NCBI GenBank assembly: GCA_017473435.1
Contig: JAFULG010000002.1
Span: forward strand, 42,664 to 106,663
DNA: 64,000 nucleotides
Reading direction: 5' to 3'
From: Clostridia bacterium
GTDB lineage: Bacteria > Bacillota > Clostridia > Oscillospirales > Acutalibacteraceae
Below are positions 19,257 to 35,590 of the stretch, in pieces (within the stretch, counting starts at the first letter, position 1; every line of letters begins with the position of its first letter). The position numbers and the translations under genes are program-made. Below the pieces are notes generated by a model. It did no database searches, had not been told where the DNA came from, and saw nothing but the letters and a program-made list of their open reading frames with translations.

Positions 19257-21131
19257 ATGAAATATTTTGCAAAAGAATATGATGTAATAGTAATCGGTGC
19301 AGGCCATGCCGGTATTGAAGCCGGTCTTGCGGCGGCACGTCTCGGTGTAAGCGTCGGTGTATTCACTATTAATATGGATTGGGTTGGTAATATGCCCTGC
19401 AATCCTTCAATCGGCGGAACCTCAAAGGGTCACCTTGTACGTGAGATTGATGCTCTCGGCGGTGAAATGGGTAAGGCAGCAGATGCCAATACTTTACAAA
19501 GCCGTATACTCAATCTCGGTAAAGGACCTGCCGTTCACTCCCTGCGTGCACAGATTGACCGCAGACATTACAGCGAATATATGAAGCACGTAATGGAGCT
19601 GCAGGAGGGTCTTGAAATAGTTCAGGCTGAAATTACCGACCTTGTAAGAAGCGAGGACGGTAAATGGCAGGTTACAACTATGCTGGAAGCTGTTTACAAG
19701 GCAAAGTGTGTAATTCTTGCAACGGGCACCTTCCTTGCTTCAAAGATATACGTAGGAGATGTTGTATATGACGGCGGACCTGACGGTATGTTTGCGGCAA
19801 CAAGATTAGGAGAATCTCTTAAAAAGCTCGGTGTTTCAACAAGACGTTTTAAAACAGGTACCCCATCACGTGTGAACAGACGCAGCATCGATTTTTCAGG
19901 TCTTGAACGTCAGGACGGAGACGAGAGGGTTGTCCCCTTCTCTTTTGACGGAAAATATCAGCCTGAAAACAAATTGCCATGCTATATTACATATACAAAT
20001 GAGGAAACCAAGCAGGTAATCCTTGATAATATTCATCGATCTCCCCTTTACAGCGGTAAGATTGACGGTGTAGGTCCCAGATACTGCCCTTCCATTGAGG
20101 ATAAAATTGTCCGCTTCTCTGAAAAGAAGAGACACCAGCTCTTTATTGAGCCTTGCGGAGAGAATACAGAGGAAATGTATCTTCAGGGAATGTCGTCTTC
20201 TTTGCCTGAGGATGTTCAGCTTAAGTTCCTTCGCACAATTCCCGGACTTGAAAATGTTCAGGTTATGCGTACAGCTTACGCAATTGAATATGACTGTGTT
20301 GATCCTCTTACTCTTAATGCCAGTCTTGAATTTAAAGAATTCAGCGGACTTTTCGGTGCCGGACAGTTCAACGGTTCTAGCGGATACGAGGAAGCGGCTG
20401 CTCAGGGTCTTGTTGCAGGTATAAATGCAGCGCAGAAGTGTCTTGGCAAGGATTATCTTATCCTTGACAGAGCTTCATCATATATCGGTACACTTATTGA
20501 TGACCTTGTTACAAAGGGTTGCTCTGATCCTTACAGAATGATGACCTCCCGTTCAGAATACCGCCTTATATTAAGACAGGATAATGCTGATATCCGTCTT
20601 ACAAAGTACGGTTATGATATAGGTCTTGTGAGCGAGGAAAAATGGCAGAGATTACAGGAAAAGCTGAAGCTTGTAGAAGAGGAAAAGGAAAGAATATCCC
20701 TTGTTTCCGTTCCTATGAGTAAGGAAATCGACGAGCTTCTTGTTTCACGTGGAACATCACCTCTTGTCACAGGCTGTCGAATTTCCGAGCTTCTGAAGCG
20801 GCCGCAACTGGATTATGAGGTGCTCAAGGATTTTGATCCGGAAAGACCTGACCTTCCCTATGAGATTTTCGAGCAGGTCGAAATTGGGATTAAATATGAA
20901 GGCTATATAAAACGTCAGCTTGCCCAGGTTGAGGAAATGAGAAGACTTGAGGTAAAGAGCTTAAAAATGATAAATGATTATAAAGAGGTTTTAGGCTTAA
21001 GAAGCGAAGCACAGGAAAAGCTTAACAAAATCAAGCCCGAAAACCTCGGTCAGGCTTCAAGAATAAGCGGTGTAAGCCCTGCTGATATATCGGTATTGCT
21101 TATTTACCTTGCAAAAAACGGATTGAATTAA
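19257..21131 (+). CDS. mnmG: tRNA uridine 5-carboxymethylaminomethyl modification enzyme MnmG (GidA)
   Basis: 624 aa with N-terminal FAD-binding VIVIGAGHAGIEA and GidA-family sequence throughout. Confidence 0.97.
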   Translation: MKYFAKEYDVIVIGAGHAGIEAGLAAARLGVSVGVFTINMDWVGNMPCNPSIGGTSKGHLVREIDALGGEMGKAADANTLQSRILNLGKGPAVHSLRAQIDRRHYSEYMKHVMELQEGLEIVQAEITDLVRSEDGKWQVTTMLEAVYKAKCVILATGTFLASKIYVGDVVYDGGPDGMFAATRLGESLKKLGVSTRRFKTGTPSRVNRRSIDFSGLERQDGDERVVPFSFDGKYQPENKLPCYITYTNEETKQVILDNIHRSPLYSGKIDGVGPRYCPSIEDKIVRFSEKKRHQLFIEPCGENTEEMYLQGMSSSLPEDVQLKFLRTIPGLENVQVMRTAYAIEYDCVDPLTLNASLEFKEFSGLFGAGQFNGSSGYEEAAAQGLVAGINAAQKCLGKDYLILDRASSYIGTLIDDLVTKGCSDPYRMMTSRSEYRLILRQDNADIRLTKYGYDIGLVSEEKWQRLQEKLKLVEEEKERISLVSVPMSKEIDELLVSRGTSPLVTGCRISELLKRPQLDYEVLKDFDPERPDLPYEIFEQVEIGIKYEGYIKRQLAQVEEMRRLEVKSLKMINDYKEVLGLRSEAQEKLNKIKPENLGQASRISGVSPADISVLLIYLAKNGLN

Positions 21132-21142
21132 GGAGAAAAGCT

Positions 21143-21865
21143 ATGGCAGATTTTATTTCAAAAAGCTTGCTTAAAGAAAAAGCGGATGAATTTGGTGTTG
21201 AGCTCGATGAAAAGGCACTTGACCGCTTTGATATTTACGCAAGACTTCTTGTAGATTGGAACGAAAAAATCAACCTTACTGCAATCACCGAGCCTGATGA
21301 GATTGTTATAAAGCATTTTGTGGATTCATTAACTTTATTTTCTTCAATCAATATTCCCAAAGGCGCAAAGGTAATTGATGTAGGTACAGGTGCAGGCTTT
21401 CCCGGTGTTGCAATGCTTATAGCCAGACCTGACCTTGATATTACCCTTATGGACAGTACAAACAAAAAGCTTAATGTAATCAGAGACATCCTCGAAAATA
21501 TGGACCTTGAGGCAAATGTTGTGCATAAGCGTGCAGAGGAAGCGGGTCAGAGCAAGGATTTCAGGGAGCAGTATGATTTTGCGACAGCAAGAGCAGTCTC
21601 AAATCTTCGAGATCTTTCAGAGTTTTGTCTGCCCTTTGTAAAGGTAGGAGGTACTTTCATTTCAATGAAAAGTGCAAAGGCTGATGAAGAGATTGAAGAG
21701 GCTAAAAAGGCAATTTCAGTTCTTGGCGGTAAAATCAGAGAAAAGAAAACCTTTTCGCTTGATAATGCAGGGGAGAGAACAATAATTTTAATCGAAAAGT
21801 TTTCGTCAACACCCGGCAAATATCCAAGACCTTCGGCAAAAATGGTTAAGAATCCTATAAGATAA
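21143..21865 (+). CDS. rsmG: 16S rRNA (guanine527-N7)-methyltransferase RsmG (GidB)
   Basis: 240 aa with SAM-binding DVGTGAGFPG, directly downstream of mnmG. Confidence 0.95.
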   Translation: MADFISKSLLKEKADEFGVELDEKALDRFDIYARLLVDWNEKINLTAITEPDEIVIKHFVDSLTLFSSINIPKGAKVIDVGTGAGFPGVAMLIARPDLDITLMDSTNKKLNVIRDILENMDLEANVVHKRAEEAGQSKDFREQYDFATARAVSNLRDLSEFCLPFVKVGGTFISMKSAKADEEIEEAKKAISVLGGKIREKKTFSLDNAGERTIILIEKFSSTPGKYPRPSAKMVKNPIR

Positions 21866-21916
21866 TGCCGAAAAAGATAAGCTATAATAAAATAATGTAA
21901 AACGGTTTTTATGGAC

Positions 21917-21965
21917 AACCTTTCCTTACTGTGGTATTCTTTACAGCAAGGAAAGGTTTTTTGTT
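21917..21965 (+). terminator. Rho-independent terminator candidate after rsmG
   Basis: Arms aacctttccttactgt and acagcaaggaaaggtt pair at 15 of 16 positions, followed by a T-run at 21957-21962. Confidence 0.6.
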
Positions 21966-21977
21966 TGGAGGTTGTAT

Positions 21978-22820
21978 ATGATAACTGAAAAGCCTAGGTC
22001 GGCAGGACAGGTTTTGCTTATACCCAGTGAGATAATTTATCCCAATCCCAATCAGCCGCGAAGAAGTTTTGATCAGGAGGAGCTTGTAAATCTTGCGATA
22101 AGCATAAGAATGAACGGAATACTTCAGCCGATAACCGTAAGAGAAACGCAAAACGGTTATGAAGTTGTTTCCGGAGAAAGAAGACTAAGAGCGTCGCGAC
22201 TCGCAGGAATGTTATCAGTACCGTGTATTGTTATTGATGTAAACAGCTTTAAGTCAGCGGTATATGCTCTTATTGAAAATCTGCAAAGACAAAATTTAGG
22301 TTATTTTGAAGAAGCAGCAGCGATCGAAAGACTGATGAAGGACTTTGGTCTTTCCCAGGAGGAAGCGGCAAAGCAGCTGGGTAAAGCTCCTTCAACAGTT
22401 TCAAACAAATTGAGACTTTTGTCTTTGCAAAGTGAAGCAAGGAATTTACTTTGTGAGCACGGACTTTCGGAAAGGCACGCCAGAGCTTTATTACGTTTAC
22501 CGGAAGATAAAATATTGCCTGTGCTTAACAAAGTTATTGAAAGAAAGCTTAATGTTACACAAACTGAAGCTTACATAGAAGAGATTCTTTCAGAAAAGCA
22601 GGGAAACAGAACTACAAAAACAATGTTCAGCGATGTTAAAATCTTTCTCAAAACCATTAACCATGCAGTTGAAACAATGAAAAAAGCAGGCATAAAGGCC
22701 GACATCAAAAAAGAGGAGCAAGAAGAAAGCTATGTCTATCATATAAAAATACCTAAAAAGGAAATGTACAAGCCTCCTGTACAAGCTGATGGCAACACCC
22801 AAAGTGGTGATTCCATATAA
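21978..22820 (+). CDS. ParB/Noc-like N-terminal-domain protein (ParB paralog)
   Basis: ParB-box GERRLRASR and N-terminal IIYPNPNQPRRSFDQEEL. It sits at the position between rsmG and soj that noc occupies in Bacilli. The start is ATG 21978, with ggagg 6 nt upstream. Confidence 0.8.
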   Translation: MITEKPRSAGQVLLIPSEIIYPNPNQPRRSFDQEELVNLAISIRMNGILQPITVRETQNGYEVVSGERRLRASRLAGMLSVPCIVIDVNSFKSAVYALIENLQRQNLGYFEEAAAIERLMKDFGLSQEEAAKQLGKAPSTVSNKLRLLSLQSEARNLLCEHGLSERHARALLRLPEDKILPVLNKVIERKLNVTQTEAYIEEILSEKQGNRTTKTMFSDVKIFLKTINHAVETMKKAGIKADIKKEEQEESYVYHIKIPKKEMYKPPVQADGNTQSGDSI

Positions 22821-22853
22821 TCATATCTTTCTCTTTCACACCCCACAATGAGG

Positions 22854-22888
22854 AAAACCGCATCTTTATGGTGCGGTTTTCTTCTTTT
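22854..22888 (+). terminator. Rho-independent terminator candidate
   Basis: Stem aaaaccgca (22854-22862) pairs with tgcggtttt (22872-22880), followed by cttctttt. Confidence 0.6.
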
Positions 22889-22894
22889 CGTAAA

Positions 22895-22910
22895 TGTTTC
22901 ATGTGAAACA
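22895..22910. promoter_or_regulatory. parS centromere-like site
   Basis: TGTTTCATGTGAAACA matches the TGTTNCACGTGAAACA consensus at 15 of 16 positions. It lies in the spacer just upstream of soj-spo0J. Confidence 0.75.
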
Positions 22911-23004
22911 ATTTATAAAAAATATAAAAAGCTCTTTAAAAACTGAATATATTGTGATATAATACTTGTCTAAACAAATATTTCTGATAAGAAAGGGTGA
23001 AACA

Positions 23005-23781
23005 ATGGGTAAAACTATAGCTATTGTTAACCAGAAGGGTGGCGTAGGAAAGACCACGTCTGCGGTAAACCTTGCTGCAGCTATCGGTTATTATGGATAT
23101 AAAGTGTTGCTTGTAGATATGGACCCTCAGGGTAATGCGACAAGCGGACTTGGTATAAATAAAAGAGAAATTGTCAAATCTACCTATGATATGACAGTAG
23201 GGGACACAAAAGCGGCAGAAATACTCAAAACCACACCTTATGCCAATCTTAGTGTGTTGCCTTCAAATATGAATCTTGCCGGTGCAGAGCTTGAGCTGGT
23301 TGATATGGACGACCGACAGGTAAGAATAAAAAATGCACTTGCTCCCCTGAAGGCAGACTATGATTTTATCATAATCGATTGTCCCCCCTCGCTTGGATTG
23401 CTTACGGTTAACGTGCTTTGCGCAAGTGACAGCGTTATTGTTCCGATTCAGTGTGAGTATTATGCTCTTGAAGGATTGTCACAGCTAATGAATACAATCC
23501 GACAGGTAAAAAGACTCTATAATCCTTTAATTGAGCTTGAGGGTGTACTTCTGACGATGTATGACGGCAGACTTAATCTTACTCAGCAGGTAGTAGGGGA
23601 GGTTAAACGCTTCTTTCCGCAGAAGGTATACGGAAGCGTAATTCCCCGTAACGTGCGTCTTTCAGAAGCTCCGTCCTTCGGTAAGCCGGTATATTATTAT
23701 GACAGAGCCTCAAAAGGCAGTACTGCATACGATGAATTTGCGGTTGAATTTCTAAATAAGAATAATAAGAAGGTGAAATAA
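23005..23781 (+). CDS. soj: Chromosome partitioning ATPase ParA/Soj
   Basis: Deviant Walker A KGGVGKTT, IIIDCPPSLG and a ParA-type C-terminus. I prefer ATG 23005 over the track TTG 22966. Confidence 0.95.
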   Translation: MGKTIAIVNQKGGVGKTTSAVNLAAAIGYYGYKVLLVDMDPQGNATSGLGINKREIVKSTYDMTVGDTKAAEILKTTPYANLSVLPSNMNLAGAELELVDMDDRQVRIKNALAPLKADYDFIIIDCPPSLGLLTVNVLCASDSVIVPIQCEYYALEGLSQLMNTIRQVKRLYNPLIELEGVLLTMYDGRLNLTQQVVGEVKRFFPQKVYGSVIPRNVRLSEAPSFGKPVYYYDRASKGSTAYDEFAVEFLNKNNKKVK

Positions 23782-23782
23782 T

Positions 23783-24652
23783 ATGGCAAAAAAACAAAGC
23801 GGTCTTGGAAAAGGTCTTGATGCTCTTTTCCTTGACAATTCGACAACAGACGGTGATAAGCCGTTAAGACTTCCGATTACTGAAATTGAGCCTAACAGAG
23901 ATCAGCCCAGAAAGCATTTTGATGATGAGGCATTGCAGGAGCTTTGTGACAGCATTAAAATTCACGGTGTTATTCAGCCACTTGTTGTAAGACCTATTTC
24001 CGACGGCGGTTATCAGCTTATTGCAGGTGAAAGACGTTGGAGAGCATCCCGTATGGCAGGTCTTACGGAGGTTCCCGTAGTTATAAGGGAAATGGCTGAA
24101 AACGAGACAATGGAAATCGCTTTAATAGAAAATTTACAGCGTGAGGACCTTAATCCCATTGAAGAGGCAGAGGGCTTCCGCGTGCTTATGGACAATTATT
24201 CTCTTACTCAGCAGGAGGCAGCAGAAAGGGTAGGTAAGTCCCGCCCTGCAGTTGCAAATACAATGCGACTTCTCGCCCTTCCCGTAAAAACTCTTGATTA
24301 CGTGAAACAAGGCAAGATTTCCGCCGGTCACGCAAGGGCACTTCTTCCTCTTAACGAGGAAGCAAGAATCAACCTTGTGGCTGATGAAATCATCAGAAAA
24401 GGTCTTTCCGTAAGAGATGTTGAAAAAATGGTAAAGAATATCCTTTCCGACAAAAAGCACAAGGAAAAGGATGAGGAAAAGAAGAAGGAGAAGCGCGATC
24501 CCTTCTATGATGAGTGTGAAATTGCTATCCGCGAGGAGCTTGGCAGAAAGGCCGAAATTCACCTCAAATCCGCAAACAAAGGCACTATTGAAATTGAGTT
24601 CTTCAGCAAGGTAGATCTTCAGTCAATTCTTGAAGCTCTTGCAGGTAACTGA
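23783..24652 (+). CDS. spo0J: Chromosome partitioning protein ParB/Spo0J
   Basis: 289 aa with ParB-box GERRWRASR, an HTH region (LTQQEAAERVGKSRPAVAN) and a C-terminal dimerisation region. Confidence 0.95.
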   Translation: MAKKQSGLGKGLDALFLDNSTTDGDKPLRLPITEIEPNRDQPRKHFDDEALQELCDSIKIHGVIQPLVVRPISDGGYQLIAGERRWRASRMAGLTEVPVVIREMAENETMEIALIENLQREDLNPIEEAEGFRVLMDNYSLTQQEAAERVGKSRPAVANTMRLLALPVKTLDYVKQGKISAGHARALLPLNEEARINLVADEIIRKGLSVRDVEKMVKNILSDKKHKEKDEEKKKEKRDPFYDECEIAIREELGRKAEIHLKSANKGTIEIEFFSKVDLQSILEALAGN

Positions 24653-24674
24653 TATATAAAGGAGAGTAATTAAA

Positions 24675-25943
24675 ATGTTAGATATTAAGCTTATCAGAGA
24701 AAATCCCGAAAAAGTTAAGGCAGCCATGAAAACAAGAAATAAGGATATGGATGCTGTTGTTGACGAAATTCTTGAAATTGATGCTCAGGTAAGAGCAATC
24801 ACACAGAAGGCAGATGCTCTTAAGGCTGAGCAGAACGCAGCAAGCAAAAAGATCCCTCAGATTAAGAAAGAGGGTGGCGATATCAGCGAGATTATGGCTC
24901 GTATGAATGAAATCAAGGAAGAGGTAAAGAGCCTTGATGCTGAAAAGAACGAGCTTGCCGCAAAGCAGAAGACTATGATGTACGAATTCCCCAATGTTCC
25001 TTCAGAAACAACTCCCGTTGGTAAGGATGACAGCGAAAACGTAGAAATCCGCCGTTACGGTGAGCCCAGAAAGTTTGATTTTGAAGCAAAAGCACACTGG
25101 GAAATCGGTGCAGATCTCGGCATTCTTGATCCTGAAACTGCTGCAAAGGTAACAGGTACACGCTTCCATTTCTATAAGGGTCTTGGTGCAAGACTTGAAA
25201 GAGCTATCATCAGCTTTTTCCTTAACACTCACACTGAGCACGGCTACACAGAGGTTTTCCCTCCCTTTATGGTTAACCGTGCATCAATGACCGGTACCGG
25301 TCAGCTTCCCAAGTTTGAAGAAGATGCTTTCAAGCTTACAAACGACTATTTCCTCATTCCTACAGCAGAGGTTCCCGTTACAAATATGTTCAGAGACGAT
25401 ATCCTCGAGGGAGACAAGCTTCCTATGAGCTTCTGTGCTTATTCAGCTTGCTTCCGTGCAGAGGCAGGTTCTGCCGGCAGAGACACAAGAGGTCTTATCC
25501 GTCAGCATCAGTTCAATAAGGTTGAGCTTGTTAAGTTTGTAAAGCCCGAGGAAAGCTATGCTGAGCTTGAAAAGCTTACCAACGATGCAGAAAGAGTGCT
25601 TCAGCTTCTCGGTCTTCCCTACAGAGTTGTTGCACTTACAACCGGTGATATCGGTTTCTCATCGGCAAAGACTTATGATATTGAAGTCTGGATGCCTTCT
25701 TACGGCAGATATGTTGAAATCAGCTCCTGCTCAAACTTCGAGGACTTCCAGGCAAGACGTGCTTCGATCCGTTTTAAGAACGGTCCCAAGGAAAAGGCTC
25801 AGCTTGTACACACACTCAACGGTTCAGGCGTTGCTGTAGGCAGAACAACCGCTGCAATCCTCGAAAACTATCAGAATGAAGACGGAACAGTAACAATTCC
25901 TGAGGTGCTTGTTCCTTATATGGGTACTGATATTATCAAATAA
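24675..25943 (+). CDS. serS: Seryl-tRNA synthetase
   Basis: 422 aa with an N-terminal coiled-coil arm and class II motifs ([21 protein letters not shown]; GSGVAVGRT). Confidence 0.97.
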
Positions 25944-25963: not shown

Positions 25964-26800
25964 TTGTCAGCAATCACAAAACATAAAGACAATTTTCTAA
26001 AATACCGCTACCTTCTGAAGGAGCTTGTTATAAAGAACATCAAGCTTCAGTACAGAAATTCCGTACTCGGTATGTTCTGGACATTTTTACAGCCCCTTCT
26101 TACAATGGTGGTGCTTGCAGTTGTTTTCTCAAATCTTTTCGGAAAAAATTCGTCACAGGTAGTTAACTATCCTGTATATCTTCTTTCCGGTCGTTTGCTT
26201 TATGAGTTTTTCACCCAGAGTACAAAGCGCGCTATGCGCTCAATCCGTGCAAATTCATCTATTATAAAAAAGGTTTATGTTCCTAAGTATATTTACCCCC
26301 TTTCGGTGGTAATTTCAACCTTTGTAACATTTCTTATCTCCCTTTCCGTTCTTGCGATTGTTATTCTTTTCTTTAACATTCTTAAGAAAAATCCCGTTCC
26401 TGTTACATACAACGTCTTTTATGCAATCATTCCTATTATAATAATGTTTGTTTTCTCTCTCGGCGTAGGTATGTTTCTCGGAACACTCAATGTTTTCTTT
26501 AAGGATATAGAGAACTTTTACGATGTTTTCACCTTGCTTCTGTTCTATCTTACTCCCATTGTTTATACTGTGGACAGACTCGGTTTTCCAAAGGGCTCAT
26601 GGCAGGCACTTATGCTTAAGGCTAATCCTCTTTACGGAATGATTGAAATGTTCCGTGCCGCTGTTATTCACGGCGATAAGTTTATGGCTTATTTCAGTAT
26701 GAACCAGCTCTATTACACGTCAGCGGTAGCTATTGTTACACTTGTATTCGGCTTCATCGTATTTTACAAGAATCAGGATAAATTCATTCTTCACATTTAA
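25964..26800 (+). CDS. ABC-2 type exporter permease (TagG/Wzm-like, cell-surface glycopolymer export)
   Basis: 278 aa with multiple TM helices and the ABC-2 N-terminal signature region (YRNSVLGMFWTFLQPLL). TTG start 25964 has gggagg 8 nt upstream. Confidence 0.85.
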   Translation: MSAITKHKDNFLKYRYLLKELVIKNIKLQYRNSVLGMFWTFLQPLLTMVVLAVVFSNLFGKNSSQVVNYPVYLLSGRLLYEFFTQSTKRAMRSIRANSSIIKKVYVPKYIYPLSVVISTFVTFLISLSVLAIVILFFNILKKNPVPVTYNVFYAIIPIIIMFVFSLGVGMFLGTLNVFFKDIENFYDVFTLLLFYLTPIVYTVDRLGFPKGSWQALMLKANPLYGMIEMFRAAVIHGDKFMAYFSMNQLYYTSAVAIVTLVFGFIVFYKNQDKFILHI

Positions 26801-26814
26801 AGGAGGCGTCAACA

Positions 26815-27558
26815 TTGAAAGAATATGCTATTGAAGTAAATCATGTTAGTATGCTTTTTCATCTTAACAAAGAGCGTGTTGACAATGCCAAGGAATATTT
26901 TGTAAGACTTCTTACCAGAAGACTTACCTTTACTGAATTCTGGGCACTTAAGGATGTATCCTTCAAGATTGAAAAGGGTGACCGTGTAGGAGTTCTCGGC
27001 TTTAACGGAGCCGGTAAAAGTACATTGCTCAAGACTATTGCAGGCGTTCTCAAGCCTACAACAGGCAGTGTCAGGGTCAGCGGTGTAATTGCTCCATTGC
27101 TTGAGCTGGGAGCCGGCTTTGATCCCAATTATTCCGGAGCGGAAAATATTTACCTGTACGGTGCTACAATGGGATTTTCTCGTAAATTCATAGATGAAAA
27201 GTTTGACGAGATTGTTGAATTTTCCGAATTAGAAGAATTTATGGATGCTCCCCTTAAAAGCTACTCTTCAGGTATGAGAAGCCGTCTCGGCTTTGCCATA
27301 GCTACAGCGGTTCAGCCTGACGTGCTCATTCTTGACGAGGTGCTTTCTGTAGGTGACGCTGCTTTCAGGGCAAAGAGTGAACAGCGAGTGCTCGACATGA
27401 TGACAGAGGGTGTTACGGTGCTTTTTGTTTCACATAGCACAGAGTCCGTAAAGCGCATCTGCAATAAGGCAATTATTCTCACCAAGGGTCAGCTTGTTGC
27501 CGAGGGTGAGGTAAATGAAATCTGTGAAATTTACACGGAAATGATAAACGGGCGATGA
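26815..27558 (+). CDS. ABC exporter ATP-binding protein (TagH/Wzt-like, short form)
   Basis: 247 aa with Walker A GFNGAGKSTLLK, signature YSSGMRSRLGFA and Walker B VLILDEVLSVGD. TTG start 26815 has aggagg 8 nt upstream. Confidence 0.9.
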   Translation: MKEYAIEVNHVSMLFHLNKERVDNAKEYFVRLLTRRLTFTEFWALKDVSFKIEKGDRVGVLGFNGAGKSTLLKTIAGVLKPTTGSVRVSGVIAPLLELGAGFDPNYSGAENIYLYGATMGFSRKFIDEKFDEIVEFSELEEFMDAPLKSYSSGMRSRLGFAIATAVQPDVLILDEVLSVGDAAFRAKSEQRVLDMMTEGVTVLFVSHSTESVKRICNKAIILTKGQLVAEGEVNEICEIYTEMINGR

Positions 27559-27779: not shown

Positions 27780-27980
27780 GATACTAACTAAAAGTGACTC
27801 AATATGCCTTGTTGCGCCCATTTTGCATTTTACACGGTCAGGTCAGGGACCGGCAAAAGGGTTTATAGGGCAGAAAAAGGGCACATAAGTTTCGTTCAGA
27901 CGGTTAATATTTTAAAGGTCGCAGCTGCGACCTCAAAGCCGTTTTATATAACGACAATTTTTGTTAAGGAGGAAATCTTA

Positions 27981-30900
27981 ATGAAAAATCAATTAAAGAA
28001 AAGTTTATCTTTTGTAATGGCAGTGTTGATGATACTGTCTTGTTGGGTGTGGGTAGCACCGGAGAAGGCTGAGGCGGCCGGTGCGTATACTGTTGTTGTT
28101 ACGACAGGCTCTCAGGGAAATGAGTATCCGAATCCGGCTGAAAATCAGCATTACGTAAATATTTATGACAAAAGCGGAAACTATAAGCAATTTAACTGGG
28201 TAAATGCCCAAGATGGAAAAACCGGCCCGGAAATTTTTGAGGTTGATTATTGGCCTGCAAAAATAGGCTTCCATATTGCTTCTAAAAATGTTGCTGCTGT
28301 TAGGATTACCAATATTTCAATCAACGGTGTGGAGATTTTTGCCGATGCTTATAATATGAAATGTACTGGTGCGGGCACGGATGTGTATGTGGCTCACAAA
28401 GATGTGGTTATCGAAGCCGGCGGCACCCTTGAAAGTTGGACTTTTTCAAATTGGAAAGCACCCTATTTTAAATCTCTCACTGAAATGAGCGCAACAGATG
28501 TAGATGTAGTAAAATATCCTTCAACATCAGTATCAACATCTACCGTAACCGTTACCGGCGGTCTTGACCAGTACGGTGTACTATATGATGGTACAAAGCC
28601 CGGTACAGGCTATACGCATACATTAAAGTATACAACAAATCTTGGCGATATGGTTTCTCTTGATTCCAAGTATGCCAGGATTACAAGTGCTTCAGGAGCA
28701 AGTCCCGTAACAGTAACTGTTTATCCGGAGATTCAGAAGCTTTTTGAAGTTACCGGTTCTACAGAAATTTATCTTGAGTCTTATTATAACAGTGACACAA
28801 AAAGTGTTATACATACACCGATAATGTTACATTTCCCCAGATACTCCGCCTACTTCTATCCTAACGGCGGTACTATCGGTACAAGTAAAACAAATAATAC
28901 CTCCGATGACGCTAAGCCTCTCGAATACGGAAATATTCTTTACGGCGCTTTTATAAAGCAGTTACCCAAATATGCTGACAGAAGTTCAGAGGGTCTTGAG
29001 CTTGACGGATATTACAGCCAGAAATATGAGCCCTCAAGAGCTTTGAAGACTCACTTTGATGAAAAGCTCAAATATGACCCCGATAACTCTAAGATTGATG
29101 ATAAGGGTAATTCACATTGGTATGCAGCCTGGAAAGCAAAGACATATAAAGCTACCTTCAGAGTAAACACAAATATGCTCGGACAGCTTGACGCAAAGCA
29201 CGGCAAGGCCATGCTTGATGAAGGAATGTATGAAAGTGTGGCTGCAATTAACAGTATGCTTGCATCTGCATATGAATCAGCAGATAAGGACGCAATTAAA
29301 TTTGAAAATACTGCTAACTTTGGCCGAGCTCCCGTATTTGAGGATAATGTTTTTGTAGGTTGGAGAATGTTAAAGTCTGACGGTAGCCTTTTAGATCTTC
29401 AGAACGAAGTGATTACCGGCGATGTAGTTTTTGAGGCTGTTTTTGCAACAAGAGATGAAGCGGAAAAGAAATATACAACAACCTTCTATGACGGTAACGG
29501 CGGAATAGCAAAGCAGGAGACTCTTCCTTTCCGTTCTCTTGCAAAAGCTCCCGTAATCGCGGATAAGGAAGCTGATGTTAAGTATACTTATGAGTTTGCA
29601 GGCTGGGCAAAGAATGTAGGAAAAAAATTCTACACAGTTGATGCTGAGGGTAAGGACGAAACAGGAGCTTTCATTCCTTATATGCCTTACGATACAGCCG
29701 AATTTGTTGTAACAGAGGACGCATCCTATGTTCCTGTATTCAGAATGACAAAGATACCCTATAAGGTAACCTTTAATTTCAGAGGAAACATCGGCGAGAA
29801 TTATACAACCCAGTCGGTTGTAGTTGACGGTTACCATTACGGTGATCATATTACTGTACCCGAAACCGTAAAAACAAATTACACTTATAACGGAAAGAGA
29901 TATAATCTTACAGGCTGGAAGCAGGGCCTTAATGAGGTTGATATTGACGAAATTACCGTTACCGGAAATATGTCATTAAACCCCGTTTATGATAATGGCG
30001 CGGATGCTGTTTATACCATCAAATTCTATGATAAGGATAATAATCTTATCGGTGCAGAATATGATGACGAAGGAAACCTTATTAACGCTACTAAATATGA
30101 ATATATTCACAACGCAAGTGTAACCGTACCTGAGATCCCTATAACAATTGAAACCGAAACTTCACGTTATGTATTTGACCGCTGGTCATCAGAAGTTGCT
30201 GTTCAGGCAAAGGCTGATGCGGAATACAAGGCAATTTACGATAAAAAAGATTATGCGGATATCAGCTTTGAAAAAGCTGACGGAACTCCTATTTACAGCA
30301 TGTCAGGTAAAGAAAACAGCCAGTTTGTCGGTGATGTTATACCTGAATATGATGAAGAAACTTACGGCGCTCCCCAAAAGAATGCCGATGAAATCGGTTC
30401 GTATGAGTGGGTAGGTTGGGAAGATCAGAACGGTAATGAGGTTATTCCCGGTACAACAGTGCTTACCGGAAATACCATACTCAGACCTTTATACGAAATA
30501 ACCAAACATAAGTATACAGTTGAATTTGTAATTCCCGGTGAAGAAGGCAACCCGGATTTAGTTGTTTCTAAAGAAACTTATGAATACCGTGACAAGATAA
30601 CCGTTCCTGCTGATGCAGACGTTAAAAAAGAGGCAGATGATTATTATACCTATACTTTCTGGCAGTGGGATCCTGCTGTATCAGAAAACTGTTACGGTAA
30701 CGCAACTTATAGAGCAGTCTTTAAGAAAAAACCTATTTACTATACAGTTAAATGGCTTACAGATGCCAAGAATCTTTACAGAACAACACGAGTTGCATAC
30801 GGTAAAAAAATTCAGCAGACCTCAACACCTGAAACAGAAAGATTAGGTGCTGCTCCTACAGGTTACACCTGGGCGCTGAAGGAATGGATTCGCTGTAATG

Positions 30901-33900
30901 AATACGGTAATGATATTCTTGTAAACGGAGAACAGATTAAGTACAGCCGTGAAACCTTAATGGAAAAAGGTGAGATGTATTTTTATCCCGTTTATGAAGC
31001 AGTTGCCGGAAAGAACGCGGTAACATTCGGTAAAATGGTTGACGGTGAATTTAAGGCAGTAACAACCGAGCAGATTAACTATAACGCTCTTGTAAGCGAT
31101 TATACCCCCGGCGCTCTTGAAGCTGTCGGAATTCCTAAGTCAACAGATGATTACCATTATGTATTCGTTAAGTGGTTACCCGTTGGAGGTGGAGAGCTTG
31201 AGCGGAATGAAAATGGTGAATACATAATTACCGGTCCGGTACAGCTTTATCCGGAATTTGAAATTGAACAGCATACTTTTAAAGCAGGCGAGATTGTTAA
31301 GGCTCCTACTTGTCTTGAAAAAGGTTATGCAGTAAATGAGTGCACATATGAGTATTGTACTATAGAGCCTGGCTATATTGAGCTTGACAGAATCGCTGAC
31401 GAAAGTGCTCCCGAAGGTACAGTTTATATCGGTACAGAAAAGTGGACAATGAATAACTATACTGATGGAATTGACTACAGCGAAGACGAAATGGTTTATG
31501 TTAATGCAGGTTCTTCAACAATCGTAAACGCTGTTGATATCGGTACAAGAGGTAAGAACAATCCTGAAGCAAAGCTTTCAAGAGGTGTCGGTAAGATTGA
31601 ATATGCTGTTGTAAATGTAGATGATATTGAAAATTTTGCAACTTTCAATCCTCATACAGATATATCCGAAGGCTGGACAACAATTTATAATTACGAGAAC
31701 ATTTATAATTCAGTTCTTGAAGCTGTTCTTGCAAATAACGGAAAGAAGTTGTCAGATTATAATAATCTTGAAGATGCTCTCAAGAATAAAATTGACAGCG
31801 AGGTTAAGACTGTTCTTGCCGGATACAATGCTAATGCAACAGGTATCCTTGGCGGACTTAATCTTGAAAACGGCAATGAGTACGTTATCTACCTCAGACT
31901 TTCTGATATCGAAATTAACGGTGACGTAAATATTTCTTATATGAGCACCGGCAGACTTCATTACGGCACTGAGGCAGCTAAAATCACTCTGTCCGGTGAA
32001 GGCTACGGTACAAAGTTCTGTGAAGCGGTTACAATTAAAATAACTGACGATACAGAAGGCTTTGAAGCTTATATTGACGGTGAAAAGCAGAATATTACTG
32101 TAACATCAACAGGTGTAATTTCCGCAACCTTTACTAATAACAAGGTTGGCGTTCACACCTTGACTGTAGTTGATAAGAACGGTAACAAGTCAACAAAGAG
32201 CTTTGAAATCAAGAACGGACACAGCTACAGAAATTATACGGTAGCAGCAACATGTGAAAACGAAGGTTCAAGATATAACCTCTGTACAGTCTGCGGCACA
32301 AAGAATGATGTAGTTGCGCTTCCTGCAAAGGGACACAGCTTCACTGACAACTATACTGAAATTGCTCCCACTTGTATTGTCGACGGTACCAGAACCTATG
32401 TTTGTGACAATAACTGTGGCGAAAAGCTCACAGTTGGTCCTGCTTCCGGTGAAGATGAGCTTAAGGCTGTAGGAATTACTTCCGCTGATACGCTTAAGCA
32501 TCTCTTAGCAACAAAGACACATACCTATGCTAAGGTTCTTGATGATAATGGCAAGGAAACCTCTCAGGATGCATGGGTAATTGATAAGGCTGCTACCTGT
32601 ATGGTTAAAGGTAGTAAGCATAAGGACTGTATTGTCTGCGGCGCACGAGAAATCGAACCTATTGAAAAGGATACTGAAAACGGTCATAAGTTCTACCGTG
32701 CAAGAGTTGAAGACGGCGATGAAGCAACTTGTGTTAAGGACGGTATCAAGTCAGAAACCTGCCGTTACTGCAGTTATGAGAGAACTGTTGATACCATTCC
32801 TGCTCTCGGACATACCGAAGGCGAGTATGTAGTTACACTTGCTCCTACATGTACAACTGAGGGTTCAAAGGTTCTCAAGTGCACAGAATGTGATGCAACT
32901 CTGGGCGAAGCTGTAGTAGTTCCTGCAACAGGTCACAAGCTTGTAGCAAAGGATGTTCCTTTCCAGGGTGAAGGAACTGACACTAAATGGTATCAGATTT
33001 TTGAATGTGTTACCGATGGTTGTGACTATGAGGTAACAAAGGAAGTTGAACACGAGGAAGAGGCAAAGGGTACCGTAATATTCAAGAACGAGGACGCAAC
33101 TGTTGCAACCTTTGCAGATGAGACAGTTGGCGAAACAATACTTGCTTCTGATGTCGCTGTTCCTACAAAGACTTCTGATGTTGACTATAAGTACACATTC
33201 TCACACTGGGCAACAAGAACAGGTGAAGGTACTGAGGAAAGTCCTTATGAATACACGGCTGTTAAGTTCCCCATCACTGTTGAAGAAGGCAGTGCAACAT
33301 ATTATGCTGTATTTGCAAAGAAGAATATCAAGTACACAGTTACATATTATTATGACGATCAGATCACACAGTACAAAAAGGTAGGTTATCTTAATAACGC
33401 TGCTGAGCATAAACTTGAAGAAGGTCCTGAAAAGGCTGCAACAGTTAGCAAGACTTACAAATTTGTCGGTTGGGGCGAAAAGGTTGAGAAGGTTGTAACT
33501 GAAGAAGTAAAAGACGCAGACGGTAATCCTACAACTGTTGAAAAGACTGTTACAGAGATTGTACCTGTTGAAGGTGATACAGTAAAGATCAACGGAAAGA
33601 ATATTGTTCTTTATGCAGTATATGCTGCAAGTGACAGGTGTTACTCAGTTACTTATGCTGACGGTTCGGGCGAATTTATTGAAACCTTCTACGTAAAAGC
33701 AAACACAAAGGCTCGTGCTTGTGCAATAGAGCCTGAAAAGGATGCAGACAGCAAGTATCACTATACCTTCAAGAGCTGGAACAGATCAAATCAGCTCAGC
33801 AATGTTAAGAGCAATATTTATGCATCACCTGAATTCACAGCAGTGAGTCACACCTATCCTGTTGAAAACAGGGTAATCAAAACTGCAGCAACCTGTACAG

Positions 33901-35201
33901 AAAATGCAGTTTACACCTACAAATGCAGTTGCGGACGCAGCTACGATAAGGAAGAACCCGGTTCAGCTATTGGACATAGCTGGGGCGAGGCTAAGTATGA
34001 TGAAACAACAGGCAAGAACACTGTAACCTGTCAGATAGAAGGCTGCGGTGCAACTGAAGTTGATACACGTACATTTACATTCAAGTTCTACCTTGAAGAG
34101 CCTGCTGATGAAAATGCTAAGACTTATGACGATGTAAACAATATTTACTGGGGTTCAACAGTTGATTCTACAAGACTTCCTGCCGATCCTGAAAAGGATG
34201 CTAATGAACAGTATACTTACGAGTTTAAGGGTTGGAAGATTAAGGGCGATGAAACCGGAACTCTCTTAAGCAGTGCAGATATTGCAAAGCTTAAAGTTAC
34301 AAAAGATTATATCTTCGTAGCCGACTTTGATGAAATTGAGCGTGTATTCAAAGTTATATTCGCTTACGAACATTCACGTAAGGCTATTCAGGTTTTAACT
34401 GTGAAATACGGTGAATCCGCTGTATTTACCGAAGCAACTCCTGAAAAGTCAAAGGATACCGATCCCGGCTACAAGCCTAAGCTTAATCACTATACCTTCA
34501 AGGGCTGGTCAGCTGACACATCTTCAATCACCGAAGATCTTATAGTTTATGCTAAATTTGAAGAGGAAGCACATAGCTATACTCTTTCGGATACTATCGG
34601 AGAAGCTACTTGTGAAAAGGGCGCCGGATATGTGTTCACATGTAGCGGTTGCGGTGATTCATATGAAGATACCGGTAAAGCTCTCGGTCATGACCTTAAA
34701 GAGGTTGGTGTAGAAGAAGGCTATATCATTTATAAATGCACAAGATGTGACCATACAGAGAGCAAGCCTGTTGATGCTCCCGAGGAAGATGAAGAAGAAG
34801 TTGTAACAAAGGCAATGGCAACTGTTACTGTTCTTCGCGGCGATGAAAAGGTATCAGGCATTAAGGTTATTATCCAGCCTCTCGGTGAAGATGCACCTGT
34901 AATCGGCACAACAAATGCATACGGTGTTGCAAGCTTCGAAATCGATAAGAGCAAGACTTATGTTGCTTGGGTAGAAATTGAAGGTGAAAAGCTTCCTGTT
35001 TCACTTTCAGTTGGTGCAGACGGTAACATCAGCGGTGTTTACACCATTGAAGTTGCAGACAACAACGGTAATGGCAGCTGTGGCTGTGCATGTCACCGTA
35101 ACAATGTATGGGGCGCTATCTTCAGATTCTTCCATAAGATTATCAAGCTCTTTACAGGAGAATTCAAGTGCTGCGCTAACCCTGATCCCATGTATGGTTA
35201 A
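27981..35201 (+). CDS. Giant secreted or cell-surface protein (2,406 aa) with Listeria-Bacteroides-type repeats, His/Cys modules, a beta-sandwich domain and a Cys-rich C-terminal tail
   Basis: AAGGAGG (27966-27972) lies 8 nt before ATG 27981. The signal peptide is MKNQLKKSLSFVMAVLMILSCWVWVAPEKAEA|AG. At least 14 repeats end in Y-x-[YF]-x-F-x-[GKRQS]-W (YTYEFAGW, YVFDRW, YEWVGW, YTYTFWQW, YHYVFVKW, YKYTFSHW, YKFVGW, YHYTFKSW, YTYEFKGW, HYTFKGW). About 10 H..TC-x2-G-x5-C-x2-C modules are present. The track start 27804 is rejected. Confidence 0.9.
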   Translation: MKNQLKKSLSFVMAVLMILSCWVWVAPEKAEAAGAYTVVVTTGSQGNEYPNPAENQHYVNIYDKSGNYKQFNWVNAQDGKTGPEIFEVDYWPAKIGFHIASKNVAAVRITNISINGVEIFADAYNMKCTGAGTDVYVAHKDVVIEAGGTLESWTFSNWKAPYFKSLTEMSATDVDVVKYPSTSVSTSTVTVTGGLDQYGVLYDGTKPGTGYTHTLKYTTNLGDMVSLDSKYARITSASGASPVTVTVYPEIQKLFEVTGSTEIYLESYYNSDTKSVIHTPIMLHFPRYSAYFYPNGGTIGTSKTNNTSDDAKPLEYGNILYGAFIKQLPKYADRSSEGLELDGYYSQKYEPSRALKTHFDEKLKYDPDNSKIDDKGNSHWYAAWKAKTYKATFRVNTNMLGQLDAKHGKAMLDEGMYESVAAINSMLASAYESADKDAIKFENTANFGRAPVFEDNVFVGWRMLKSDGSLLDLQNEVITGDVVFEAVFATRDEAEKKYTTTFYDGNGGIAKQETLPFRSLAKAPVIADKEADVKYTYEFAGWAKNVGKKFYTVDAEGKDETGAFIPYMPYDTAEFVVTEDASYVPVFRMTKIPYKVTFNFRGNIGENYTTQSVVVDGYHYGDHITVPETVKTNYTYNGKRYNLTGWKQGLNEVDIDEITVTGNMSLNPVYDNGADAVYTIKFYDKDNNLIGAEYDDEGNLINATKYEYIHNASVTVPEIPITIETETSRYVFDRWSSEVAVQAKADAEYKAIYDKKDYADISFEKADGTPIYSMSGKENSQFVGDVIPEYDEETYGAPQKNADEIGSYEWVGWEDQNGNEVIPGTTVLTGNTILRPLYEITKHKYTVEFVIPGEEGNPDLVVSKETYEYRDKITVPADADVKKEADDYYTYTFWQWDPAVSENCYGNATYRAVFKKKPIYYTVKWLTDAKNLYRTTRVAYGKKIQQTSTPETERLGAAPTGYTWALKEWIRCNEYGNDILVNGEQIKYSRETLMEKGEMYFYPVYEAVAGKNAVTFGKMVDGEFKAVTTEQINYNALVSDYTPGALEAVGIPKSTDDYHYVFVKWLPVGGGELERNENGEYIITGPVQLYPEFEIEQHTFKAGEIVKAPTCLEKGYAVNECTYEYCTIEPGYIELDRIADESAPEGTVYIGTEKWTMNNYTDGIDYSEDEMVYVNAGSSTIVNAVDIGTRGKNNPEAKLSRGVGKIEYAVVNVDDIENFATFNPHTDISEGWTTIYNYENIYNSVLEAVLANNGKKLSDYNNLEDALKNKIDSEVKTVLAGYNANATGILGGLNLENGNEYVIYLRLSDIEINGDVNISYMSTGRLHYGTEAAKITLSGEGYGTKFCEAVTIKITDDTEGFEAYIDGEKQNITVTSTGVISATFTNNKVGVHTLTVVDKNGNKSTKSFEIKNGHSYRNYTVAATCENEGSRYNLCTVCGTKNDVVALPAKGHSFTDNYTEIAPTCIVDGTRTYVCDNNCGEKLTVGPASGEDELKAVGITSADTLKHLLATKTHTYAKVLDDNGKETSQDAWVIDKAATCMVKGSKHKDCIVCGAREIEPIEKDTENGHKFYRARVEDGDEATCVKDGIKSETCRYCSYERTVDTIPALGHTEGEYVVTLAPTCTTEGSKVLKCTECDATLGEAVVVPATGHKLVAKDVPFQGEGTDTKWYQIFECVTDGCDYEVTKEVEHEEEAKGTVIFKNEDATVATFADETVGETILASDVAVPTKTSDVDYKYTFSHWATRTGEGTEESPYEYTAVKFPITVEEGSATYYAVFAKKNIKYTVTYYYDDQITQYKKVGYLNNAAEHKLEEGPEKAATVSKTYKFVGWGEKVEKVVTEEVKDADGNPTTVEKTVTEIVPVEGDTVKINGKNIVLYAVYAASDRCYSVTYADGSGEFIETFYVKANTKARACAIEPEKDADSKYHYTFKSWNRSNQLSNVKSNIYASPEFTAVSHTYPVENRVIKTAATCTENAVYTYKCSCGRSYDKEEPGSAIGHSWGEAKYDETTGKNTVTCQIEGCGATEVDTRTFTFKFYLEEPADENAKTYDDVNNIYWGSTVDSTRLPADPEKDANEQYTYEFKGWKIKGDETGTLLSSADIAKLKVTKDYIFVADFDEIERVFKVIFAYEHSRKAIQVLTVKYGESAVFTEATPEKSKDTDPGYKPKLNHYTFKGWSADTSSITEDLIVYAKFEEEAHSYTLSDTIGEATCEKGAGYVFTCSGCGDSYEDTGKALGHDLKEVGVEEGYIIYKCTRCDHTESKPVDAPEEDEEEVVTKAMATVTVLRGDEKVSGIKVIIQPLGEDAPVIGTTNAYGVASFEIDKSKTYVAWVEIEGEKLPVSLSVGADGNISGVYTIEVADNNGNGSCGCACHRNNVWGAIFRFFHKIIKLFTGEFKCCANPDPMYG

Positions 35202-35220
35202 AATACAAAGTTAATCCTGA

Positions 35221-35256
35221 ACAGAGACTCCCGTTAAAGGAGTCTCTGTTTTTTCT
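35221..35256 (+). terminator. Rho-independent terminator
   Basis: Stem acagagactcc (35221-35231) pairs with ggagtctctgt (35239-35249) around a 7-nt loop, followed by tttttt. Confidence 0.8.
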
Positions 35257-35427
35257 TTGCAGAACATATTGTGTCTGTAGAAATTTGAAACACTATATAT
35301 GATTATTATATTTTTCTGTGCAAATATAATGAGAAAAAAGAAATAAAAACGCAGCAAGGAAAACTTAACAAATAAAAAAAGCTATATATATGCAAAATGT
35401 AGAATTAAAAAAAAATTAAAAAATATA

Positions 35428-35456
35428 TTGAAAATACTGACTTTAAATGATATACT
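35428..35456 (+). promoter_or_regulatory. SigA-type promoter candidate for the giant ORF
   Basis: TTGAAA (35428-35433), a 17-nt spacer, then TATACT (35451-35456) with an upstream TG at 35448-35449. An A-tract-rich UP-like region lies upstream. This implies a leader of about 127 nt. Confidence 0.55.
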
Positions 35457-35590
35457 TACGATAGTTATAGGTGTCTCTATGGGCGTTTTGCACCCTTTTT
35501 TAGGGAAAATCACTAAAAATCGTGCTTTTTTCCATAGAAAATCCTATTTTCAGCAATATATACAATCTTTCATTTAAGGAGGAAAATTTT

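Follow-up and report, generated by a model that had tools for sequence, protein, structure and literature searches.

The last 40 residues of a large secreted protein encoded in a 64,000-nucleotide stretch of a Clostridia bacterium from the Acutalibacteraceae (contig JAFULG010000002.1, positions 42,664 to 106,663; this whole stretch is called the window below) are a type-A copy of a previously unannotated modular C-terminal tail. The tail is lineage-restricted, strongly selected, and modular, and it is carried by secreted proteins; an amphipathic helix separates its two Cys/His clusters, whose spacing is fixed. Most likely, it serves to hold these proteins at the cell surface, and a putative role in anchoring or sorting is well motivated. 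As to the way in which this may be achieved, we tentatively favor, with somewhat less than even confidence, a module for non-covalent surface retention that would act through an in-plane membrane helix clamped by metal-binding clusters.

Architecture, conservation, and spread of the tail

The tail measures roughly 40 amino acids (aa) overall and consists of a flexible linker, the proximal cluster C-x-C-x-C-H, a stretch of 24 residues that holds a cationic, Trp/Phe-rich amphipathic helix of 17-18 residues, and a distal Cys pair. In the window protein these elements follow one another on the forward strand, starting with the short hydrophilic linker EVADNNGNGS (35049-35078), whose sequence and length vary among homologues. 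Next come the proximal cluster C-G-C-A-C-H (35079-35096), which is near-invariant across tails, the amphipathic cationic aromatic helix VWGAIFRFFHKIIKLFT (35106-35156), the distal CC pair exactly 24 residues past the His (35169-35174), and the terminal octapeptide ANPDPMYG (35175-35198), corresponding to the type-A consensus ..PD..Y. The translation of 35079-35198 reads CGCACHRNNVWGAIFRFFHKIIKLFTGEFKCCANPDPMYG and is closed by the stop codon at 35199-35201. The original prediction had described this end as a C-x-C-x-C-H cluster, a helix, and a CC pair, and it agrees exactly with the translation. The Cys residues occupy positions 2367, 2369, 2371, 2397, and 2398 of the protein, the last two counting as the 10th and 9th from the end and being followed by eight residues.

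A full-length homology search yielded 159 homologues, originating from metagenome-assembled genomes (MAGs) named Acutalibacteraceae, Ruminococcus sp., or Clostridia, and one of them (P0001) is 100% identical to the window protein. The best 120 of these 159 were examined; nearly all are 2,200-2,900 aa long, with 24-48% identity, and in 120/120 the tail forms the C-terminal end, while an internal C.C.CH was found in none of them. When 71 distinct tails were aligned, C5, C7, H8, and the distal CC (alignment numbering) proved invariant, and C3, W13, F17, R18, F20, K22, G29, P37, and Y41 were conserved in at least 90%. Selection on the tail is also evident from a comparison with the rest of the protein: over 143 orthologues, the 32-residue tail core shares a mean identity of 74.7% with that of the window protein versus 31.7% for the bodies, and the core is conserved above the body in every single orthologue (143/143). 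In a wider set of 199 tails defined by homology or by a hidden Markov model (HMM), C.C.CH is present in 198, a distal CC or CxC likewise in 198, and the exact 24-residue spacing in 192, the C.C.CH motif always being C-terminal.

Three types of the tail can be distinguished. Type A, to which the window protein belongs, reads C.C.CH...FWG.IFRFFHKIIK.FTG...CC..PD..Y; type B reads C.C.CHK.GI.GFF.KI.LFF.K.F..NK.C.CG..H(Y); and type C reads CDC.CH...IWA.L.R...K...FG....CCDD. In a gap-corrected alignment the distance from the His to the first distal Cys is exactly 24 residues in all three, which further share hydrophobic residues at +4, +8, +11, +15, and +19 and basic ones at +10 and +17. The distal element is CC in types A and C and C-x-C-G-x-x-H in type B, after which at most about 12 residues precede the stop. 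We propose the following family rule: C-x-C-x-C-H, then 24 (±1) residues with a hydrophobic stripe and basic positions, CC or CxC, and a stop no more than about 20 residues further on, all on a protein with a signal peptide. The window protein has every element of this rule, and 184 of 204 retrieved proteins fit the CxCxCH-helix-CC pattern.

Beyond the 2,400-aa family, the tail was sought with a profile run without a word index against 1.84 billion protein representatives, which gave 113 matches at E≤1e-3 and 84 at E≤1e-10. Four of the 113 are Cys-repeat false positives; all true matches end within a few residues of the C-terminus, and they include proteins unrelated to the 2,400-aa family. 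Word-indexed searches, first with the 50-aa tail alone and then with a type B/C profile, came back essentially empty (P0203 only in the second); the index used there requires three shared 5-mers.

At the DNA level, the common architecture was written as a 93-nt degenerate pattern, which matches the window at 35079-35171, and scanned over the 596 Gb of the GTDB species set, for which fewer than one chance match is expected (an estimate that assumes uniform base composition). Among the 121 matches listed, 119 are true tails, situated at the ends of long open reading frames (ORFs) with a stop 4-20 codons past the distal Cys. The matches in an archaeon (L006) and in a member of the Verrucomicrobiota (L044) have no ORF and were set aside as chance matches. 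The true loci number at least 118 from at least 82 assemblies, all of them gut or rumen MAGs of the Oscillospirales type. The tail-bearing taxa are Acutalibacteraceae, Oscillospiraceae, and Ruminococcaceae. Only MAGs carry the tail among the matches listed, their hosts being human, goat, sheep, deer, cattle, water buffalo, and others. Taken together, conservation, position, and the GTDB scan rule out a chance origin of the tail.

Several copies per genome are common, as at least 28 GTDB assemblies hold 2-4 tail loci each; in one case (L088, 4377-6250 of JAFVVQ010000034.1) two type-B tail genes stand in tandem. Types A and B occur together in one genome in the assemblies CAKTFN, JAZRTP, JAZRJR, JAZRFT, and JAZUOC, and on one contig in CAKTDF010000004.1 (L091 and L110). 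Because A and B coexist in single genomes, the types cannot simply be the same tail as it diverged between lineages.

Type B, the most frequent of the three, occurs on proteins from about 230 to more than 1,600 aa. The passenger domains comprise BspA-type leucine-rich repeats, transglutaminase-like cores, InlB B-repeats, and CarboxypepD_reg sandwiches. Upstream of a type-B tail there is usually a D.DGDG.CD.CG motif (P0074, P0078, P0079, P0119, P0192, P0198, P0200, P0201, and many of the GTDB loci), which from its sequence looks like a Ca-binding loop followed by CxxC, whereas a CarboxypepD_reg-like sandwich precedes the tails of types A and C. We also observed small proteins of about 228-263 aa, made up of a signal peptide, one domain, and the tail (ending ...SETTFTMGVFNV.AEAVYKD-CEC.CH...), that recur in many Acutalibacteraceae MAGs and would be the simplest natural test objects.

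A lenient signal-peptide heuristic was positive for 47/50 complete tail ORFs versus 152/366 other ORFs at the same loci, and for 162/169 long database tail proteins. The tail is thus neither unique to the window protein nor unlinked to export, since it recurs and nearly all of its carriers have signal peptides. The enrichment on signal-peptide proteins for which the original prediction had proposed a pattern search is therefore present. The similar CxCxCH...FF.KI..FF...C.C tails that it places at the ends of other large Clostridia surface proteins can now be identified as well: these are the type-B tails of the Oscillospirales, at the extreme C-terminus.

The helix and its possible place at the cell surface

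The last 125 residues of the window protein were modeled with AlphaFold2 from a 62-sequence alignment, giving a mean predicted local distance difference test score (pLDDT) of 86. Model residues 1-75 (34824-35048, forward strand) form the last beta-sandwich domain before the tail, of the CarboxypepD_reg/transthyretin-like kind, with pLDDT >90; PF13620 is precomputed on many homologues. The linker falls below 60, and below 50 at model residues 80-84. It is followed by a single isolated helix at model residues 95-111, 17 residues corresponding to VWGAIFRFFHKIIKLFT, with block-mean pLDDT of about 81-87, and by a coil end at about 75. A Foldseek comparison of the 125-aa model with the PDB matched the sandwich to transthyretin/CarboxypepD-like folds, none significantly, and gave no match for the tail. 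PDB sequence profiles likewise returned nothing significant, the sole match being the membrane-active peptide PSM-alpha3 (E=0.95).

One possible reading is that the tail has no role in localization and is merely a structural cap, i.e., a metal-stabilized mini-domain that finishes the last beta-sandwich or Cys-knot domain. The richness of these proteins in His/Cys knots speaks for it, as does the regular order of domains, in which types A and C always come after a CarboxypepD_reg-like sandwich and type B after D.DGDG.CD.CG. However, the linker between sandwich and tail is variable and modeled with low confidence, the same tail follows different upstream domains, and it is never found internally after other sandwich or knot repeats. 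Moreover, a free cap would hardly expose a face of 9-10 aromatic or aliphatic residues to solvent. With so large a hydrophobic surface exposed and a flexible linker in front of it, we consider a cap very unlikely.

The physical chemistry of the helix is consistent over the family. For the 18-residue core of 267 unique tails, the Eisenberg mean hydrophobicity is 0.39-0.40 and the helical moment (100 degrees) 0.55-0.61, with z 2.5-3.1 versus shuffles, compared with a beta-strand moment (170 degrees) of 0.15. The 152 type-A tails reach a helical moment of 0.61 at a mean hydrophobicity of 0.39 (z=3.1 versus shuffles). On the Eisenberg plot, where the surface-seeking line is <muH> = 0.600-0.342<H> and the transmembrane criterion <H> >0.51 (PMC3189734), the tail helix lies above the former and below the latter cut-off. 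The Kyte-Doolittle 19-residue maximum is 0.69 in the window tail and averages 0.87 over 265 tails, of which 0.8% reach 1.6. The helix carries about three K/R and 0.0 D/E. Judged from these values of hydrophobicity, moment, and Kyte-Doolittle hydropathy, the segment is an amphipathic cationic aromatic helix, predicted to be too weakly hydrophobic to span a membrane; the amphipathic aromatic/basic helix of the original prediction thus finds agreement in both the AlphaFold2 helix and the hydrophobic moment. A transmembrane stop-transfer anchor is ruled out by the hydropathy of the tail.

Known anchors were sought over the whole protein, and the earlier claim that no classical one is present in the 2,406 aa holds for Pfam, NCBIfam, an LPXTG regular expression, and hydropathy alike. 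Neither Pfam (2025) nor NCBIfam gave an anchor domain at E≤1 for the whole window protein or its last 100 aa, nor did either of them give a significant match of any other kind. With Pfam-A, the full 2,406 aa had no significant match (only a sub-threshold BiPBP_C at E=0.09) and the last 100 aa none at all. No Pfam model covers any tail type, and NCBIfam release 20 (June 2026) gave no family at E≤10 for the tails of types A, B, and C. Gram_pos_anchor is absent by Pfam and NCBIfam, and LPXTG-like patterns occur as loose internal matches only, at residues 1066, 1223, and 1647, with none near the C-terminus. Pfam gave no match in the window protein to SLH, CWB2, choline-binding, GW, LysM, WxL, or SH3b domains, nor to Dockerin (PF00404), and the tail has no Asp/Asn-rich loops. 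We found no description of the tail in the literature, whether by motif strings or by way of giant or Acutalibacteraceae proteins; the giant proteins of Apilactobacillus end in SH3b-like/DUF5776 domains instead (PMC12863079).

These results bear on a second reading, in which the tail is a sorting signal that is cleaved or otherwise processed by a dedicated enzyme, comparable to LPXTG, PEP-CTERM, or MYXO-CTERM. C-x-C-x-C-H would be its signature, and the tail would be removed or its Cys linked to lipid or wall. The extreme C-terminal position, the unrelated secreted passengers, the several copies per genome, and the invariant signature at the N-terminal edge of a hydrophobic stretch all agree with such a signal. 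The usual tripartite form is lacking, however: the window tail has no transmembrane-grade segment with a basic end, as the chain closes with ANPDPMYG (..PDPMYG, or ..HY in type B), and the form of the exosortase, archaeosortase, and rhombosortase CTERM signals is absent, the segment not being transmembrane-like and having no Arg cluster. In addition, conservation of the distal Cys pair and of what follows it equals that of the motif, hardly what one would expect of a segment that is thrown away. No TIGRFAM/NCBIfam sorting-domain model matches, and the 118 loci offer no processing enzyme candidate nearby, although sortases, too, are often unlinked to their substrates. On balance, we regard a processed signal as improbable.

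What the window protein does have, according to the model and the moment plot, are the attributes of a PBP5-type anchor, namely a predicted C-terminal amphipathic helix of about 18 residues, on an exported protein, in the surface-seeking region. The ligand count of five Cys and one or two His is compatible with Zn binding, and the spacing of C-x-C-x-C-H, 17-residue helix, and CC is unlike that of a zinc ribbon. A c-type haem site (C-x3-C-H within CGCACH) was considered and dropped, as it has no supporting context.

In the membrane-interface reading that we tentatively favor, the body would be exported by Sec, and the tail, leaving the translocon last, would stay at the outer face of the cytoplasmic membrane. 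There, the helix would lie in the membrane interface as an in-plane anchor, like the C-terminal helix of PBP5, with its aromatic face in the acyl region and its Arg/Lys stripe toward the anionic head groups. In the reducing gut, the two thiol/imidazole clusters at the helix ends could bind a metal, most likely Zn2+, and thereby fix this arrangement, and they may also bridge neighboring tails. The net effect would be non-covalent retention at the surface without sortase, SLH, or choline-binding modules. The absence of acidic residues and the interfacial Trp/Tyr fit an in-plane anchor, and three K/R next to 0.0 D/E suit a helix that binds an anionic surface better than one that pairs through salt bridges in a coiled coil.

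Critically speaking, several points weigh against this reading. Every functional step of the in-plane anchor model is inferred. The type-A sequence IFRFFHKIIK is nearly frozen across orthologues whose bodies are 25-48% identical, although lipid-binding helices usually conserve only a physico-chemical pattern, and three distinct tail types coexist in single genomes; the frozen sequence and the coexisting types speak rather for pairing of like tails or for a partner protein that is specifically recognized. The known in-plane anchors exemplified by PBP5 form the very end of their chains and are not flanked by Cys clusters, five invariant Cys, an odd number, are not explained by a simple membrane anchor, and no co-located gene in the 118 loci ties the tail to the membrane.

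The tail gene, its signal peptide, and its neighbors

The tail-bearing gene occupies 27981-35201 on the forward strand, stop codon included, and encodes the 2,406-aa type-A product. Mechanically, its ORF opens at 27804, but the MKNQLKK start lies at 27981, and the Met of MKNQ/MKKQ is the start in every homologue, which sets the length of the window protein at 2,406 aa. The 59 codons 5' of the real start (27804-27980; MPCCAHFAFYTV...) appear in none of the homologues, and this segment is most likely an untranslated leader.

The first 32 codons (27981-28076, forward strand) specify a signal peptide, MKNQLKKSLSFVMAVLMILSCWVWVAPEKAEA, recognized by hydropathy and motif conservation. It is the sole hydrophobic segment of the window protein with a Kyte-Doolittle 19-residue mean of at least 1.3 (value 2.17), and it holds a family-specific W-V-W-V-A-P motif that is found in 147/157 type-A proteins versus 3/52 type-B proteins. 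Anchored on this motif, 32 aa share 74.7% identity across 136 orthologues, compared with about 32% for the bodies. Since the signal peptide is conserved like the tail, it may be a specialized targeting signal or an uncleaved N-terminal anchor; its sequence suggests that type-A proteins possess either a targeting signal comparable to YSIRK or such an N-terminal anchor. The statement in the original prediction that the tail is the only plausible retention element was therefore too strong. A lipobox reading of ILSC in the signal peptide was rejected, as the Cys becomes Ala or Thr in family members (MTAWVFVAP).

Between about 32214 and 34652 (residues ~1412-2224), the body contains seven repeats of the form H-x12-14-(A)TC-x9-C-x2-C, each with one His and three Cys, for which no Pfam model matches in the window protein. 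These are probably small extracellular metal-binding knots between B-repeat-like domains. With seven such knots in the body, extracellular His/Cys metal sites are a regular feature of this protein.

Upstream, an origin-adjacent gene set (gidA, gidB, noc/parB, parA, parB, and serS) lies at 19257-25943, so that the surface-protein pair formed by the tail gene and the giant ORF downstream adjoins the chromosomal origin region; locus L125 has the same origin-region arrangement beside its pair. An ABC-2 permease and an ABC ATPase (25964-27558) stand directly upstream of the tail gene and are kept in the close relatives L001-L003 and L125. They were considered as dedicated partners, but they are absent beside a 26%-identical orthologue (P0103, L124) and thus probably play no such role for the tail.

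Downstream, a strong terminator-like hairpin with a 13 bp stem and a T-run (35219-35251, forward strand) closes the tail gene within an AT-rich intergenic region of 390 nt (35202-35590) that also holds promoter-like sites at 35285-35312 and 35428-35456. The hairpin and the promoter-like sites between them suggest that the tail gene and the giant ORF are transcribed separately.

The giant ORF begins at 35591 on the forward strand and is still open at the window end (64000), with more than 9,470 aa visible. On the ENA contig ERZ28654267 scaffold_157 it measures 10,697 aa, its last 1,227 residues lying beyond the window, and across three contigs its length is 10,697, 10,207, and 9,342 aa. Type-A genes keep it as their downstream partner: the pair persists down to 26-31% identity, and N-terminal fragments of the giant occur 3' of type-A genes in at least 13 GTDB loci. 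The giant has a signal peptide of its own and 0.3% Cys in the visible 9,470 aa, in which we found no Pfam match, no transmembrane-like segment besides the signal peptide, and no complementary Cys cluster. A scan of JGI metagenomes gave no relative of it. The exhaustive tail profile search returned no protein above 4,100 aa, and no tail-bearing ORF resembles the giant, which suggests that the giant itself is without a CxCxCH-helix-CC tail. When all ORFs of at least 100 aa from the 118 GTDB loci were clustered, no gene besides the giant recurred beyond small syntenic groups, and no dedicated enzyme or receptor was linked to the tail.

It is against this background that a third reading has to be weighed, in which the tail is a docking or self-assembly module analogous to dockerins or to the C-terminal cystine-knot dimerization of mucins. 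Here, the helix would bury its hydrophobic face against a dedicated receptor, the giant, or other tails, with metal or thiol bridges between chains joining the proximal cluster of one to the distal cluster of the other in an antiparallel pair, and each of the types A, B, and C would have a specificity of its own. The within-type conservation of 75% versus 32% for the body is in line with this, and so is the finding that three types coexist within genomes, in one case on a single contig. That type A is tied to the giant ORF in a conserved gene pair points the same way. Furthermore, the 24-residue spacing sets the clusters at opposite ends of a helix of about 25 Å, so that they could not share a metal within one monomer unless the arms fold back and would be satisfied more easily across an antiparallel chain pair. 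Yet no receptor candidate recurs beside the tail genes, and the giant is Cys-poor (0.3%), with nothing among its 9,470 visible residues to complement the clusters. The 0.0 D/E of the helix would be unusual for a coiled-coil or docking interface, and AlphaFold2 models the helix partnerless, which is weak evidence. In our view docking is a serious rival to the in-plane anchor, if still somewhat doubtful.

A further possibility is that the tail serves as an address tag in a surface-protein sorting or attachment route of the Oscillospirales that has yet to be described, working through thiol-based covalent modification or metal-bridged docking to an envelope receptor, with the types as specificities. 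To this idea we assign a rather low probability.

Relation to known systems and significance

Among known systems, the tail would functionally be most like the PBP5-type amphipathic anchors, to which it would be analogous and not homologous, with Cys/His clamps added. The C-terminal 18-aa amphipathic helix of PBP5 tethers that protein to the outer face of the inner membrane (PMC2909392). Like PBP5/DacA, PBP6, and PBP4 of E. coli, the tail carriers are exported by Sec and carry, at the C-terminus, a non-transmembrane amphipathic helix of about 18 residues. On the other hand, the PBP anchors show no sequence relationship to the tail, form the very last residues, contain no Cys/His clusters, are not modular, and are far less constrained.

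With the LPXTG, PEP-, PGF-, GlyGly-, MYXO-, and Firmicu-CTERM signals, the tail shares its nature as a short C-terminal module with a motif before a hydrophobic stretch, as well as its presence on many unrelated secreted proteins, its several copies per genome, and its restriction to a lineage. It differs from them in having no transmembrane-grade segment and no terminal basic cluster, and in its second Cys cluster past the helix. The dockerins of Ruminococcus and Clostridium are likewise C-terminal modular tags on diverse secreted proteins in the same order, with metal dependence (inferred for the tail) and maybe several specificities in common. They are, however, about 70 aa long, built from duplicated Ca2+-binding, EF-hand-like 22-residue segments without Cys, and no cohesin-like partner of the tail was identified.

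The likeness to phenol-soluble modulins, with their Phe/Lys-rich amphipathic helix of about 20 residues, is compositional only (PSM-alpha3, E=0.95); the modulins lack Cys clusters, are free peptides, and leave the cell through an ABC transporter. Finally, S-acylation is known from Cys clusters and Cys strings next to the membrane in proteins of eukaryotes and viruses, and the Cys clusters of the tail similarly flank a putative membrane-interacting helix. We know of no bacterial enzyme for such juxtamembrane S-acylation, and the invariant His in the tail clusters points to metal rather than lipid.

The Oscillospirales (Acutalibacteraceae, Ruminococcaceae, and Oscillospiraceae) are abundant gut and rumen bacteria with very large adhesin-like proteins, and for these the tail offers a simple sequence rule that lists an unrecognized set of surface proteins, with at least 119 genes in at least 82 species-level assemblies. 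As a synthesizable peptide of 40 residues, it lends itself to tests of lipid binding, metal binding, and self-association, and it may prove useful for displaying proteins on the surface or for tracking down the partner machinery. Should the tail prove to be a distinct anchoring or sorting route, it would add a new member to the catalog of Gram-positive surface attachment, beside LPXTG, SLH, and dockerin, and if this is a new pathway, its users would include the conserved pair of 2,400-aa and 10,000-aa proteins. If, as we tentatively favor, it is a PBP5-like anchor, giant proteins would be using a modular form of such an anchor with metal clamps, of which we know no other example.

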